Positions 58,166 to 64,000 are shown, counted from the stretch's first letter. The stretch is 64,000 bases of DNA from Armatimonadota bacterium (GCA_963677485.1 OY781964.1:1600001-1664000); one strand, 5' to 3'. Notes: generated by a model from the letters alone, not told the origin. Numbers and translations are program-made.

Positions 58166-60388
58166 ATGAGAGATAATTCATCACAAAACCTCACATGGAA
58201 GCATTGGCTGCTGGCGGCGGTTTGCTTTAAGTTATTAGGGCTGGTTATCCTCTTCAGTTGCTTGTTTCAAGGCCGAATATGGCTGCCCACAGGTTTGCTC
58301 CATCACGTGATACCCGGCGTGCATGGGCCCACCCTCCCATGGAATGTACTGGGATGGGATGGGATGGCGCAGTTCGGCTCCTGGCGGATATGGTCTGGTC
58401 AGTGGATTTCCCATGGTGTGCTGCCGCTATGGAACCCCCACCAATTCGGCGGATATCCCTTGTATGCCAACTCTCAGTCCGCTCTTTTCTATCCGTTTAA
58501 CTCGGTTTTTGCCTTAGTTGGAGCGGGTGGCTTCGCGGTCACCGCTTTGATTCACATGATCATCGCCGGGTTGGGCGTATGGGCACTAGTTTGTTCCGCG
58601 GCCCGGTGCCGGTGGAGTGCAGGTATCGTGGCGGGAGCCATATTCATCCTGTCTCAGTGGTATATATCCTGGCAGTTTTTGCCTACCCTGCCCCAGAGCG
58701 CCAGTTGGATACCATGGATGCTGTATGCCGTGTGGATGCTCTGTCAGAAGCCAACCCCCGGTGCCGTCGCACTGCTAGGTGTCTCTGGAGCGATGTGCAT
58801 GTTGGCGGGTCACCTTCAGATTGCGTTTTGCGGTGTGATCGGCTCCCTCGTGATGGCACTGTGGCACCTCAATTGGAATGATCTGCGACGAGCTGGCGCA
58901 TCGATAGGCGCCTGTATCGGGGCCGGAGTATTGGCCTTCAGTCTGGCTGCCCCGCAATTGATACCGGCGGCAACCCTGGGCGGTCAGTCTAGCCGGAACA
59001 GTGCCGCCACCGAGGCAGGCTATCAAGCCTATGTTCAGGGTGGCGTCGCTCATGATATGTGGGGTATGCTGGCCTCACCCATGCTTTACGGCGATCCCAA
59101 CACAGGGTCGACAACCCAGCCTCACGCCAGCAGTTATGTTGGCACCATGCCTGCACCCGAGGCTGCGAGCTTCGTGGGAATCTGCGGACTGTTTATGGGA
59201 CTTGCGGGTCTATTTTTAAGAAAGCAACCCGGCCGAGGAGCCATGTTAAGCATCGCCGCACTTGCGATGTTACTGGCCAGTGGTTCTATCGTAAACAAGC
59301 TATTCTACTTTGGTATACCGGGTTTTGCCAGCAGCGGCTCACCTGGCAGGTCGTTGGTGTTGTGGGCACTAGGGCTGGCCGTGCTGGCCGGTTACGGCTT
59401 TGACGAATTGTGGCGTGTGGAGCGGAAAAGCGCCCTGTTGACCATCGGATTGGCACTGGCAGCCACAGCAGGAGCCATGGTATGCGGATCGTCCAGTATC
59501 CTTTCTATCACAACCCTTAGCGCGGCTCAAATGTGGCCCTACATCATGACCACTATGAGCACCAGCATACTGCTTGTGCTTATGCTCGCACTATGCAGTT
59601 CGCTGCCGATCATTGGCCGATCACTGGCGATACCGCTCTGTTGCCTCATTGTGATCGGTGAGCTGCTGTACTCCAGTGCGTCACTTAACCAGTCTGGCAG
59701 CCGCGAGCAGCTATATCCTGCGAACTCGGTAGTGAAGCAGCTTCAGCAACTGACACGTCAAGGTGAGCGAATCTATGTGGAGCAAGGCAGTTGGAGTTTA
59801 TCGACCTCACCAAAAGCGGTACTGCCCCCCAACCTCGCCACCATCTATGGGCTGTATGACCTGCAAGGCTACGACAGCCTGGCACCATCAAGTGCAAAGA
59901 GAATGCTTGACCGCATCGCTCGTCGTGACAGTGCCCCGCCAGAGAACGGCAACATGCAGCTTGGGTGGCCTGGAGCCGATAGAGAGCGTTTGCGCGAGAT
60001 GGGGGTCGGAGCCATCGTGCGATGGACGTCTAGCGGGCCAGTAGTCGAACGGCTTGCACATCCACGCTCCATCATTCAACAAGGTGACGTTGATCTACCG
60101 TATGAATGGAAAAGCCCCAACCAGATCAATTTCAAACGGCCGGCAGACAAAGGGCAGTTGCTGTTCGCGGCCCCCTTCTATCCCGGCTGGCAGGCTCAGT
60201 TGGCGTCCGGCAAGCTAGTGGCACTCAGGGGGTTTTCAAATGACCTGGTGGGACTGCCAGACGGTGAAGGCGTGGTGAGGCTACTGTTTCGCCCTGCAGA
60301 CCTTCGGGTTGGGTATGTTCTAGCGGGATTCGGTTTGGTCGTTTTGGTCACATTGCTGCTGCTGCAGCAAGTGAAGCTGCGAGCGTAG
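58166..60388 (+). CDS. YfhO-like polytopic membrane protein (GT-C type)
   Basis: PLWNPHQFGGYP...FYP, WIPW, LAGHLQ, LAAPQLIP, QGYDSL, FYPGWQA. Confidence 0.8.
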   Translation: MRDNSSQNLTWKHWLLAAVCFKLLGLVILFSCLFQGRIWLPTGLLHHVIPGVHGPTLPWNVLGWDGMAQFGSWRIWSGQWISHGVLPLWNPHQFGGYPLYANSQSALFYPFNSVFALVGAGGFAVTALIHMIIAGLGVWALVCSAARCRWSAGIVAGAIFILSQWYISWQFLPTLPQSASWIPWMLYAVWMLCQKPTPGAVALLGVSGAMCMLAGHLQIAFCGVIGSLVMALWHLNWNDLRRAGASIGACIGAGVLAFSLAAPQLIPAATLGGQSSRNSAATEAGYQAYVQGGVAHDMWGMLASPMLYGDPNTGSTTQPHASSYVGTMPAPEAASFVGICGLFMGLAGLFLRKQPGRGAMLSIAALAMLLASGSIVNKLFYFGIPGFASSGSPGRSLVLWALGLAVLAGYGFDELWRVERKSALLTIGLALAATAGAMVCGSSSILSITTLSAAQMWPYIMTTMSTSILLVLMLALCSSLPIIGRSLAIPLCCLIVIGELLYSSASLNQSGSREQLYPANSVVKQLQQLTRQGERIYVEQGSWSLSTSPKAVLPPNLATIYGLYDLQGYDSLAPSSAKRMLDRIARRDSAPPENGNMQLGWPGADRERLREMGVGAIVRWTSSGPVVERLAHPRSIIQQGDVDLPYEWKSPNQINFKRPADKGQLLFAAPFYPGWQAQLASGKLVALRGFSNDLVGLPDGEGVVRLLFRPADLRVGYVLAGFGLVVLVTLLLLQQVKLRA

Positions 60389-60489
60389 GGATTATCGGGC
60401 CTGGCGCGTAGCACGCATACGGAGCAGAATCCGGCGGATGGGACGGGTGCGACAGATAGTAATGGCGGGCAAACACGGCAGATCGTGGC

Positions 60490-60603
60490 GTGGGCGGGGA
60501 GACCCCGCCCCTACGGTGGCCACATCAGATCGTAGGGGCGGGGTCTCCCCGCCCTCACGTTCGTCCCGGCGATTACGAGAAGGGCGGTTCGCGAACCGCC
60601 CCT
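60490..60603. repeat. GTAG-type REP cluster flanking IS110
   Basis: gggcggggagaccccgcccctac...gtaggggcggggtctccccgccc doublet, then agggcggttcgcgaaccgcccct interrupted by the IS. Confidence 0.85.
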
Positions 60604-60616
60604 AGTACGCTATATA

Positions 60617-60817
60617 TGGTGAGCTCCCCGGACACCAAAAGCAGTCGGGGAGCTAATCTCACCCCTTAGCTGGGGGTGAAGGAGAAGGATTGGATGCCGG
60701 AACCGCCCCTGGTGGAAAACACCGTGACGTAGATAGGCATCCTTCTCCCAATCAACCCATATCGAACAGTATCTTGGGAGAAAACCCCGTGTTCGCTAGG
60801 CTGATTTGGTTGATTGC
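60617..60817 (+). ncRNA. Predicted IS110 bridge RNA
   Basis: Two 5' hairpins; target loop (stem ggagaagga..tgcc/ggcatccttctcc) containing gaaccgcccct and cgtag; donor loop (stem caatcaacc/ggttgattg) containing acagtatct and gctag. Confidence 0.85.
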
Positions 60818-60849
60818 ACCATCAATCACTACCAACTGGAGATTACCAC

Positions 60850-62142
60850 ATGCACGAAGTTGAAGACAAAATCTACATCCATTATGTCGGGATCGACATC
60901 TCGAAATTGACGTTTGACGCGTCTGTATTAGGTTCATCGCACAAGCCGATAGACCATAAGGAGTTCAAGAACAACAAGGCCGGATACAAGGAGTTGTTGT
61001 CATGGGTGAAGAAGCTTACCCGAACTCCCGCCTTGTATGCGGCTGAAGCCACCGGGCCTTACAGCCGACCGCTGCTTGATTACCTCTACGAGCACCAGCA
61101 CGATGCTGTCCAACTGGAGCCAAAACGGGTTCTCTATCACCGCAAAGCCAAAGGCTGGGAACAAAAGACGGACTGCTCTGACAGCGTGCTAATCGCTGAC
61201 TATGTGAAAAGTCACAATGTCTCACTCTATGTCCCTCGTCTAGCATGCTATGATGCGCTTATTGGTTACACCAATGACCGCCGTATGCTGGTGCAACACA
61301 GACAGGCGATCGCCCAGCGCCAAAGCTGTCGGCTTACGCGGAGCACAGTGCTGGACGAGATGATCGCTTTTCATGACATGGGCATCAAAAAGCTTGATGT
61401 TCAGATCAAAGAGCTTGTGATGAGTTCACCGCAGATGACCGAAGATATGGCTCTGCTGAAGAGCATTCCGGGTATCGGCGACGTCACAGCAAGCTATTTC
61501 CTTGCGAAAATCGGTGATGCTAAACGATTTGAAACATCGAAAGCGGTCGCGCGCTATTTCGGAATGAACCCCTGCCCGCAACGGTCAGGAAGCTGCAAGA
61601 CATACGACGGCTCCATATCCAAGATGGGTGACCGATATATGCGGACATTACTCTACTGTGGATCGAGCACTGTGGTGAAGATGGTCAACGGTAAGTCGAA
61701 AAAGCTTGGCCAGAGCATGCACGACTTCGTGAAGGAACTGCAGCATCCGAATTTGGTAAAGAATCCCAATAAGAAACCGAAGTCCAAGCGAGTTGTCCGG
61801 TGCGCAATCATGCGCAAGCAGCTGGTGCTCATGTGGTCGGTATTAATCAGCCGTCAGCCATATGATCCAAACTTCGGCATCGAACAAGCTTCAAATGCGG
61901 CCAACCAGCAACCGCTGACCGACGCGAACGGACATGTCCAGGATCGTGCCGGAGCGGCCCATGATATAGCCGGTGTAGGCAATGATCCTGGGCTGGACGT
62001 GAGCGTTCCAAGACGGGGATGCGTGGATGGAAATCCCACCAATGAGCCCACTCCTGCCGGCGGTGGTCGGCCCGCATCCCGAAACCGGCCATCGCGCAGT
62101 CGGGTGGGCAACAAACCGAGGGTTCTGACACCAGTATCCTAG
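60850..62142 (+). CDS. IS110 family DEDD recombinase/transposase
   Basis: VGIDISK, AEATG, KTDCSDS, SIPGIG, RFETSKAVARYFGMNP...SGS, SKMGDRYMR; start ATG 60850 behind GGAG. Confidence 0.95.
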   Translation: MHEVEDKIYIHYVGIDISKLTFDASVLGSSHKPIDHKEFKNNKAGYKELLSWVKKLTRTPALYAAEATGPYSRPLLDYLYEHQHDAVQLEPKRVLYHRKAKGWEQKTDCSDSVLIADYVKSHNVSLYVPRLACYDALIGYTNDRRMLVQHRQAIAQRQSCRLTRSTVLDEMIAFHDMGIKKLDVQIKELVMSSPQMTEDMALLKSIPGIGDVTASYFLAKIGDAKRFETSKAVARYFGMNPCPQRSGSCKTYDGSISKMGDRYMRTLLYCGSSTVVKMVNGKSKKLGQSMHDFVKELQHPNLVKNPNKKPKSKRVVRCAIMRKQLVLMWSVLISRQPYDPNFGIEQASNAANQQPLTDANGHVQDRAGAAHDIAGVGNDPGLDVSVPRRGCVDGNPTNEPTPAGGGRPASRNRPSRSRVGNKPRVLTPVS

Positions 62143-62413
62143 CTGCGGCAGTCTGCCGATAGCACGCATCGAAGCATAACGATATCTTTCGAAGCCACGA
62201 AGATGTCGCACGTTCGTTCGCGACTCCGAGCGTCATGTGAGGTGCTACGGACCAACTGATGCCATCTGAGCCTGTTTCTGTCGCGGATCCAGGTTTGGTC
62301 TATATGCCACAAACATCACATTAACGTTATTCTACGTGGTCTAGAGCCAGTGTCTGATATTCAGGTCCAAGTCCCCAGATTTGCCCCTGGGGACTTGACA
62401 AAAGCCACAGTAT

Positions 62414-64000
62414 CTACATTATCGTTATAGTATGCCTGCCCCTGCCCACCGGAATCAACAAAATGCCTGTATCGCCCTCGTAGCTGTTGGGCTGTTGGTA
62501 GGTATCGCCCACGGGTTTGCCGTCTACCGTGACGGACAGTGCCGACTTCACACCGGTGACCAGCACGGTGCCCTCATGCCAGAGCTCTACCGAAATCATG
62601 ACGCGGTTTGGGACCACGACTGGTCTGCCGATACGGCCTGGTGCGAACACGCTCCAGCCCCGCTCACGGATGTAGCTGTTATCGCCAATCGGGATGCCGG
62701 TATACAGCGGCGCGGCCTGACTCTGCACGGTGGCAGGGTTGATCGCCGGGGCGTTCGGTTTCTGTGGGATCAGCTCGATGGAGTCGGGCAGAAGTCCTTG
62801 CCAGTTGGGATTCACCTCGCGCTTTACTCCCTGTTGGATCGCGCTGATGGTGATTCCTCGCCAAATCTGATCCCAGGGCCCTTTGGTGTCTACCTGGGCC
62901 AGCTTGCGTACGGCATCGGCATACATCATGCCGCACCACTGCACCGGACGGCCCATCCAGTCCACCGACGTCCACTGCGTGGCTCCCCACACCGCGTTGC
63001 TGGCATACAGCCCAATCGGCCCATCCGTGGGTGGCACCAGGTAGAGGAACGGCACCCCGCTCCAGGCCCAGCGGATCGCCCGCTGCAGATACTTCTTATT
63101 GCCCGTCACCTGGTAGGCTTTCAGGTAGCACTCCACCAGTTGCCCGCTCGCCATGATATCTGGGCAATGGAGGGGCATCTCCCAGCCTGAGGCTCCGCGG
63201 GGGGCCGAGTTGTCGTAGCGGTCTAGAGCATCCGTGAGGCGAATGGCCTCGGCAAACAGCTTCGGATCACCCGTATACATCGCCTCCGTGTAGAGGTACT
63301 GCAGGGGTCGGCTTGCCAGACCGTTTGCGTGCCGCTCCCAGTGCGTGCTCGCAAGATCACGGCCTTCTGCAGGCTTGCCAAACAGACGGGTGCCGTCGGG
63401 CTCGAATGAGCGGATGTCAGCCAGCGCGGTTTCATGGGCGAGGCTGCGATTTTGGGCGATACCGCCAAAAACCAGCGTTTCGGCATAGGTGCGGATATGC
63501 CCCACAGAAGCCGCGTAGTATTCGCCCGGGTTTACTAGTTTCAGTGAACCCTCAGCGTTGTTGCGAAGCCGGCTGGCCAGACCAGCGTCCTGCACCTTGT
63601 CTGCCAGCCAGAGCTGCATCATGGTAGCATCCGCGGCGGGCTTGGTCGGCCACGGAGTTCCCGGTCCGGTGGCGTGCCGGTATTCACCCGCCTCCTGGAT
63701 GTCGGTGTCCAGCCAGCCGTGGGCCGTCAGGCGGGCATAGGACTTCAAGTCATATCCGCTGTCAGGCAACTTCGGCAGTCCGAAAAGCTGCACCCATCGC
63801 TGCATCGCGGTCAACACGTCGGGTGATTCGCCAGCCATGATCCACGCGGTGATGGTGATGGGCGTGTTCGCCTTGATCTCATCGGGCATGCGGCTGAGCA
63901 GCTCACCCGGAGGTAGTGCCTGCGGGTTGCGCTCGGTTTTGTAGAAATCGCTGACCAGCAAGCCCATCACGTGGCTTTTCGAGTTGAACTGCCGATCGGG
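62414..64000 (-). CDS. Hypothetical protein (alpha/alpha-toroid glycan-active-like), 5' end outside the window
   Basis: Frame stays open to 64000; PRGASGWEMPLHCPDIMASG, AYQVTGNKKYLQRAIRWA, PVQWCG. Confidence 0.7.
   Translation of the reverse strand, partial: PDRQFNSKSHVMGLLVSDFYKTERNPQALPPGELLSRMPDEIKANTPITITAWIMAGESPDVLTAMQRWVQLFGLPKLPDSGYDLKSYARLTAHGWLDTDIQEAGEYRHATGPGTPWPTKPAADATMMQLWLADKVQDAGLASRLRNNAEGSLKLVNPGEYYAASVGHIRTYAETLVFGGIAQNRSLAHETALADIRSFEPDGTRLFGKPAEGRDLASTHWERHANGLASRPLQYLYTEAMYTGDPKLFAEAIRLTDALDRYDNSAPRGASGWEMPLHCPDIMASGQLVECYLKAYQVTGNKKYLQRAIRWAWSGVPFLYLVPPTDGPIGLYASNAVWGATQWTSVDWMGRPVQWCGMMYADAVRKLAQVDTKGPWDQIWRGITISAIQQGVKREVNPNWQGLLPDSIELIPQKPNAPAINPATVQSQAAPLYTGIPIGDNSYIRERGWSVFAPGRIGRPVVVPNRVMISVELWHEGTVLVTGVKSALSVTVDGKPVGDTYQQPNSYEGDTGILLIPVGRGRHTITIM

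Follow-up and report, generated by a model that had tools for sequence, protein, structure and literature searches.

The window analyzed here, a stretch of 64,000 nucleotides from an Armatimonadota bacterium (GCA_963677485.1, OY781964.1:1600001-1664000), carries near its end a recombinase gene flanked by two non-coding ends. Together these form an insertion sequence (IS) of the IS110 family at 60604-62415 (1812 bp, with a single copy of the CT core counted), which sits between two convergent genes. Its features are listed in Table 1, and all positions are those of the window. An earlier note, made from the sequence alone, had described this element as an intact bridge-recombinase system with readable guides, programmed against a host repetitive extragenic palindrome (REP). 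We find that the element is very probably an intact, recently active IS110-group insertion sequence that moves by IS621-like bridge-RNA-guided recombination. This reading is supported by the anatomy of the element, its copy number, its target consensus, guide/DNA covariation, a conserved fold, and conserved catalytic residues.

Table 1. Features of the IS110-family element and its insertion site (positions in the window)
Feature	Position	Strand	Basis or remark
Target palindrome GGGCGGTTCG/CGAACCGCCC (REP-like unit)	60582-60601	.	Perfect 10+10 inverted repeat; left target within the 3′ arm
Left target ACCGCCC (60595-60601) plus core CT (60602-60603)	60595-60603	+	Identical to the left target guide, 60702-60710
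Left non-coding end, 246 nt, with the predicted bridge RNA; begins AGTAC (right donor)	60604-60849	+	Start identical in 12/12 copies
Predicted -10 TACGCT (3/6)	60606-60611	+	Promoter formed only across the circle junction
5′ stem-loop 1	60622-60654	+	Minimum-free-energy (MFE) and centroid folds; arms 60622-60630 / 60646-60654
5′ stem-loop 2	60659-60679	+	MFE and centroid folds; consensus fold support weaker
Target-binding loop module	60681-60748	+	Outer stem 60681-60689 / 60740-60748, inner stem 60695-60698 / 60736-60739
Left target guide (LTG) ACCGCCCCU	60702-60710	+	9/9 identity to 60595-60603
Target-loop apical stem-loop GGUG GAAAA CACC	60711-60723	+	Pairs retained in B-type elements, 2 compensatory changes (helix 3)
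Right target guide (RTG) GUAG, then handshake AU	60729-60732, 60733-60734	+	
Donor-binding loop module	60749-60816	+	Outer stem 60749-60757 / 60808-60816; helices 4-6
Left donor guide (LDG) ACAGUAUCU	60766-60774	+	9/9 identity to right end, 62407-62415
Split right donor guide (RDG) GU (60791-60792) ... CUAG (60796-60799), handshake G60800	60791-60801	+	C60801 unpaired
Recombinase gene, 430 aa	60850-62142	+	GGAG 60838-60841 upstream of ATG
Long hairpin in 3′ tail of recombinase open reading frame (ORF)	61901-62030	+	Core helix 61921-62007
Right non-coding end, 273 nt	62143-62415	+	End identical in 12/12 copies
Right-end hairpin	62368-62397	+	Right end
-35 TTGACA	62395-62400	+	Right end
Left donor ACAGTAT, then core CT	62407-62413, 62414-62415	+	Right end
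Right target AC	62416-62417	+	

The recombinase matched PF01548 (E 1.8e-21, residues 13-158) and PF02371 (E 4.4e-22, residues 201-285), in both cases exceeding the curated cut-off. It aligned with the recombinases of IS621 (8wt6; E 2.5e-28, residues 10-274) and ISCro4 (9t56; E 5e-26, residues 10-277). The motifs GIDxxK, EATG, KTDxxD, and SGS, which hold the DEDD residues and the serine of SG, aligned letter by letter with 8wt6, and D16, E66, D108, D111, S246, and G247 were unchanged across the 8 closest relatives. Relatives with >40% identity comprised P0001 to P0007 from a protein search, the copies of two elements, IS-B and IS-C, in the source genome (G000; 5.22 Mb, single contig) and a sister genome (G001), and metagenome loci L043 to L046; the next relatives beyond that clade were at about 32% identity or lower. 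P0001 to P0005 ranged from 95 to 61% identity. Scanning the genome contigs with the single protein returned no relative, and an alignment-based scan of them returned only the G001 copies at >40% identity. Judged from these searches, the element belongs to a small, distant, and sparsely sampled branch of IS110.

Twelve copies of the element are present in the source genome, each 1812 or 1796 bp long and 99 to 100% identical. Ten are 1812 bp long with the full 430-aa frame, while two carry an identical 16-bp frame-breaking deletion (equivalent to 61288-61303). All remaining differences between copies fall at only six single positions, none within the left end, and near-identity of this degree over 1812 bp indicates recent spread. 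One of the bases that distinguish the window copy, T62214, is common to one other copy. The ends were the same in 12/12 copies (...CGCCC-CT / AGTAC...ACAGTAT-CT / followed by AC in 11 and AT in 1), and both junctions shared the CT core without any longer target duplication (...CT/AGTAC...GTATCT/A..., 12/12). For ten copies, the insertion point is the foot of the 20-bp palindrome GGGCGnTTCGCGAAnCGCCC, and the other two are also placed after short GC-rich inverted repeats. Mapping the other copies, as the earlier note had proposed, thus gave identical ends and related targets throughout rather than divergent ends or unrelated targets. Direct reading of the sequence likewise bore out its reconstructed target (GAACCGCCC-CT-ACAT) and circle-junction donor (ACAGTAT-CT-AGTAC).

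IS621 from Escherichia coli has a bridge recombinase of 326 aa and a 177-nt bridge RNA (Durrant et al. 2024; Hiraizumi et al. 2024). The left end of the present element folded into two 5′ hairpins followed by two internal-loop modules, with a z score of -3.8 and none of 200 shuffles equally stable, so that the fold called for by the earlier note yielded the two-loop layout. Guide and hairpin comparisons were made with the element plus IS-B, IS-C, L043, and L044. Across these five elements, 96% of cells in the two-loop structure were paired and 7 of 30 pairs were compensatory; 0/500 shuffles did as well, and slid controls reached 35 to 47% paired. Helices 1 to 3 of the target loop were 100% paired in the 5 sequences, with 4 compensatory pairs, and a stem equivalent to 5′ stem-loop 1 was predicted for the B-type elements in the five-sequence consensus. 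A covariance model of the two loops, built from the same 5 sequences, matched at an E value of <0.001 in 6 of 100 distant IS110 loci, always on the recombinase strand. The four of these matches for which the ORF position was compared (L052, L053, L065, and L090) lay just upstream of the ORF. In the window, too, the two-loop RNA (60681-60816) is upstream of the ORF, i.e., in the left end, as the IS110 group requires. The fold, its conservation, the guide/DNA covariation given below, and the homology of the recombinase agree with the IS621-type bridge RNA layout that the earlier note had put forward.

Every motif that the earlier note had picked out in the left end is in place, including the GGTG/CACC hairpin (60711-60723) and GTAG in the target loop and, in the donor loop, the GGG/CCC hairpin (60776-60788) and ACAGTATCT, which is identical to the end of the element. 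The 11-nt word GAACCGCCCCT (60700-60710) matches the left flank plus core (60593-60603) at 11/11 positions. This identity is real, but its first two letters, GA (60700-60701), are probably not part of the guide, because the LTG of IS621 has 9 nt (PMC11208158) and because a close relative on a contig of run X17 has T at 60700 with no flank difference listed. The sequence GUAG is complementary to CT-AC at 4/4 positions, and AC follows the core in 11/12 copies. As for GCTAG (60795-60799), which the note had assigned to the donor side, CUAG (60796-60799) is complementary to CTAG of the right donor, whereas the leading G is not. Three elements had been missed: GU at 60791-60792, the handshake AU at 60733-60734, and the handshake G at 60800. 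In the IS621 bridge RNA, the RDG is split (A157-U158 / C162-G165) and the handshake bases are A81/U82 and G166 (PMC11208158). By analogy, the RDG here would be split as well, with GU facing AC of AGTAC and CUAG facing CTAG. The handshake AU pairs with T7/A6 of the donor and not with C7/C6 of the target, while G60800 pairs with C7 of the target; non-cognate handshake pairing of this kind is described in PMC11208158 as favoring strand exchange. When the 246-nt left end was shuffled 200,000 times with its composition preserved, 231 shuffles contained the 9-nt target word, 12 the 11-nt word, and 165 the 9-nt donor word; none contained target and donor words together.

The occupancy of genomic sites followed the predicted pairing. 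Exact 11-nt targets were occupied in 6 cases and free in 3. Sites with one mismatch to the 7-nt left target were occupied in 5 cases and free in 144, those with two mismatches in 0 and 584, and those with three in 1 and 1985. Because occupancy of exact sites is far above that of near-exact ones, these counts offer a clean natural record of how far mismatches are tolerated. Within the palindrome family itself, the guide-matching C at the variable position was associated with 6 occupied sites and 1 free site, compared with 4 occupied and 19 free for T or A (Fisher P = 0.002). The four related elements have different target guides, and each resembles its own flank. The guide of IS-B (44% aa identity, source genome) is CGCGCCCCU with the flank CGCGCCC-CT, and that of IS-C (9 copies in the sister genome) is GGUCAUCCCU with the flank GGTCATCC-CT-AC; both match at 9/9 positions, and the guides of L043 and L044, from metagenome contigs, each match at 8/9. 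The donor side changes in step, since B-type elements begin with TGTAT instead of AGTAC and carry AU..CAAG (facing CT-TGTAT) instead of GU..CUAG as their RDG. IS-B itself is present in two copies, one intact (G000:C1 1296598-1298388) and one interrupted (about 2667678-2672040), in which about 2.5 kb of inserted DNA splits the recombinase gene between 2668328 and 2670868.

Since nearly all insertions lie beside one palindrome, the target might instead be chosen chiefly through recognition of the palindromic hairpin as a DNA structure, by the recombinase or by a host factor, with the identity between left end and target secondary or accessory. That a single 20-bp palindrome has 10/12 insertions at its foot, and that the other two follow short GC-rich inverted repeats, is what this explanation expects. 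It also agrees with the tolerance of left-target mismatches (one in 5/12 insertions, three in 1) and with the report for ISPpu10 that a target stem-loop is an added specificity determinant. We nevertheless consider it improbable, because occupancy within a single palindrome family follows the very position that the guide distinguishes (6/7 versus 4/23) and because related elements with other guides occupy other palindromes that match their own guides. Recognition of structure would, moreover, leave unexplained the match between the donor loop and the junction of the element itself.

Under bridge-RNA-guided recombination as known from IS621, the element would circularize by joining ...ACAGTAT-CT of the right end to AGTAC... 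of the left end. The junction would set the right-end TTGACA 17 bp upstream of a weak -10 box in the left end, and the resulting promoter would drive an RNA of ~200 nt (roughly 60618-60817), made up of the two 5′ hairpins and the two internal-loop modules, and then the recombinase mRNA. Two pairings would form in the target loop: ACCGCCCCU to ACCGCCC-CT (bottom strand) and GUAG to CT-AC (top strand). The donor loop would pair with the circle junction through ACAGUAUCU and GU...CUAG. A tetramer of the DEDD/serine recombinase would then swap strands at the CT core, and exchange there would land the element without target duplication at the foot of the 20-bp palindromic repeat. Production of the RNA, its binding by the recombinase, and its direction of the chemistry are presumed here from the behavior of IS621.

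In the proposed junction promoter, TTGACA ends 15 nt from the right end, a spacer of 17 bp across the junction leads to TACGCT, and B-type elements have the same arrangement (TTGACA-17-TATGCT). A scan of the linear locus found 2 promoter sites where 1.8 were expected. We infer that excision would reconstitute the promoter, mirroring IS621. A strong hairpin lies just upstream of or overlapping TTGACA near the right end, both in the window (62368-62397) and at the equivalent place in L014, L018, L043, and L044; its sequence differs between A and B types, and one possible role is to protect the junction promoter against read-through. The window copy has G at 62371, which completes this hairpin, where all 11 other copies have A and hence an A-C mismatch. 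Contigs from sequencing runs X1 and X3, which may be the source of the assembly, carry the element as a contig of its own (1820 nt, 60597-62416) at ~10 times the word depth of the flanking contigs. Metatranscriptome runs X15 and X17 contained short contigs of close relatives, including one covering 60579-60778; since carry-over of DNA is possible, these are not evidence of transcription.

Several observations weigh against this account. Rfam 15 returned no bridge-RNA family for the region at an E value of ≤1, and the structural covariation comes from 5 sequences that represent effectively two lineages. The -10 box of the proposed promoter matches at only 3/6 positions. The IS110-group trait of a left end clearly longer than the right was not seen (246 versus 273 nt); by eye on the alignment, the right non-coding ends of B-type relatives appear still longer, and PMC11208160 gives the trait as a statistical and not an absolute rule. 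Two of the 12 insertions (L003 and L002) lie outside the main palindrome, with 1 and 3 left-target mismatches, so that either pairing is tolerant or there is another contributor. Every target adjoins a palindrome able to form a hairpin, so that these data do not separate base pairing from an effect of DNA structure such as that reported for ISPpu10. Finally, no joint of right to left end and no empty-site joint was found in the contigs of the sequencing runs, although contigs cannot show absence. It is nonetheless very improbable that the copies are a dead relic, whose loop matches are the frozen history of past spread by an element now immobile: the contigs, with that same limit, contained neither a circle junction nor an empty site and revealed no polymorphism between strains, and a frameshifting deletion is present in 2/12 copies, but the full frame persists in 10/12, the left end is invariant, and differences confined to 6 single positions over 1812 bp speak for recent spread.

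The earlier note had called the target a host REP, pointing out that IS621 also targets REPs, as is indeed stated in Durrant et al. 2024 (PMC11208160). A strict GGGCGnTTCGCGAAnCGCCC pattern occurred 42 times in the genome: 10 palindromes were occupied, 19 were unoccupied and had CTAC to one side, and 13 lacked a CTAC foot. Only 14/42 were within open frames of at least 150 codons, compared with 269/300 random sites. The palindrome therefore has the form of a REP, being short, present in many copies, and largely extragenic. The genome also has 3 PF01797 genes (Y1-transposase, of the REP-associated tyrosine transposase [RAYT] type), and neither the palindrome nor its foot occurred in the 1.5 kb to the left or right of any of them. 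With no such link to a RAYT found, the palindrome is REP-like in form, and the label REP is only partly earned.

Two other kinds of palindrome-associated sequence were noted in the course of this work. A second type of palindrome (GGGCGGGGAGACCCCGCCC-CTACG plus its inverse) forms a doublet at 60490-60556, with 24-nt arms of 100% complementarity. The foot of this doublet, CCCGCCC-CT-AC, differs by one mismatch from the target of the element and is unoccupied, and a loose pattern for this type occurred 70 times in the genome. Rfam 15 gave three sub-threshold matches only, all on the palindrome doublet (60474-60566). In addition, six IS-free sites read ...CGCCC-CT-AGTACG(C)(T), i.e., the target foot plus the first 6 to 8 nt of the left end, followed by unrelated sequence (G000:C1 264920[+], 3436711[-], 1990838[+], 2010707[+], 2851068[-], and 2382963[-]); two of the 13 palindromes lacking a CTAC foot are such sites. 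A 32-nt word of one of them was 100% identical in the sister genome, for which no A-type copy came out of the protein search, and a comparable word was found in one metatranscriptome contig. When the sites were checked as excision scars, no downstream sequence was shared among them. They may be scars or a natural variant of the foot. Three more matches to CCCTAGTAC (G000:C1 197330, 2015241, and 3003230) lie within a thrice-repeated sequence, which we take to be the sarcin-ricin loop region of 23S rRNA; these matches are coincidental and not targets.

The gene to the left of the element encodes a YfhO-like membrane protein and ends at 60388, and that to the right encodes a 518-aa protein on the minus strand (62414-63970). 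The latter gene ends in a TAG stop (plus-strand CTA, 62414-62416) that takes in both the core and the initial base of the right target, and the empty site would form the same CTA from 60602-60603 plus 62416. Insertion therefore preserves the stop codon of the minus-strand gene. By the same geometry, the palindrome at 60582-60601, which would otherwise abut that stop, has been displaced by 1.8 kb.

A further conserved structure was predicted within the recombinase gene. The protein of this clade has a C-terminal tail of ~85 aa beyond the length of IS621 (326 aa), and the corresponding part of the ORF folds into a hairpin of ~130 nt, with a z score of -3.97 on the plus strand and -1.23 on the minus strand. 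With DNA parameters, the scores were -2.0 for the sense strand versus -0.7 for the other. The hairpin comprises 44 pairs, with 89% of cells paired and 7 compensatory pairs, and 0/500 shuffles were as good. Between the element and IS-B, residues about 317-394 (71% DNA identity) and the bridge RNA (70%) were the only stretches that matched at an E value of ≤0.001. Substitutions at the three codon positions were nearly even across 61880-62040 (0.31, 0.35, and 0.35), compared with 0.30, 0.20, and 0.47 in the stretch just upstream. At the protein level, the tail was less conserved than the core in P0002 and P0003 (72 to 76% versus 87%), and in distant relatives it was no more conserved than the core. 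The hairpin was confined to IS copies, 14 in the source genome and 9 in the sister genome, and among 100 distant IS110 loci a covariance model of it gave no convincing match (best E value, 0.25). A minus-strand ORF at 61847-62236 (129 aa), which overlaps the hairpin, was weighed as a possible source of this unusual codon pattern; it is open in 4/5 relatives but has a stop in L044, substitutions between A and B types showed no phase preference, and the explanation was not adopted.

These data suggest that the ORF tail is largely the read-through of a structured RNA element, or less likely of a structure in single-stranded DNA, and not a protein domain. Whether the hairpin amounts to a third conserved nucleic-acid module of the clade, acting in cis in the transposition cycle, is a tentative proposal that we regard as rather unlikely. 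If true, the hairpin, as part of the junction transcript, could set the dosage of recombinase or bridge RNA, or it could act within the excised top strand as a signal that converts a single-stranded circle to a double-stranded one, a step left to unspecified "host repair" in a 2026 preprint. We found no published description of such a hairpin or C-terminal extension in bridge-RNA IS110 elements or as a single-strand origin, and this hairpin is the only part of the system that may be new biology.

Earlier publications already describe the mechanism, the targeting of REPs, the CTAC foot, the layout of the loops, and the logic of the handshake. Durrant et al. (PMC11208160) analyzed 5,511 pairs of non-coding RNA and target computationally, covering thousands of orthologues, and the element may be among them. 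It adds one more natural bridge-recombinase orthologue, from a distant and sparsely sampled branch, and leaves knowledge of the mechanism unchanged. Because its target, donor, handshake, and junction promoter can be read from the sequence, it is a convenient candidate for widening the set of programmable recombinases.

Among known systems, the element most resembles IS621 in its parts. The two share both Pfam domains, the DEDD and SG residues, and the CT core, and both have an RNA in the left end in which a 5′ hairpin region is followed by the target loop and then the donor loop. They also share a 9-nt LTG that includes the core, a 4-nt RTG (GUAG against CT-AC), an RDG split into 2 + 4 nt, and handshake bases A, U, and G of the same kind. 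Both have their target within the 3′ arm of a palindromic repeat, with CTAC next (ATCAGGCCTAC being the target of IS621), and in both the right end supplies a -35 box across the circle junction (PMC11208160), a trait that is only predicted here. In contrast, the proteins are distant (430 versus 326 aa, with the extra tail of ~85 aa), two 5′ hairpins are predicted instead of one, and the right end is as long as the left. The left target ACCGCCC and the right donor AGTAC also differ, and the present element is known from sequence alone. ISCro4, or IS622 (PDB 9t56; Perry et al. preprint), has a recombinase of the same protein family and has been engineered for use in human cells. ISPpu10 of Pseudomonas putida and ISPpu9 are likewise IS110-family elements that insert into conserved intergenic or REP copies. 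At ISPpu10 sites, a GC-rich stem-loop lies 5′ of the insertion point, at the foot of a palindrome as here, but there the stem-loop has been demonstrated to be a second layer of specificity. ISPpu9 has a small-RNA gene downstream of its transposase, whereas the conserved downstream feature here is the hairpin inside the ORF tail. Elements of the IS1111 group, with their seekRNAs, use the same recombinase family and are RNA guided, but their guide RNA lies in the right end and their subterminal inverted repeats are long (PMC11208160), whereas the element described here has a two-loop RNA in its left end.

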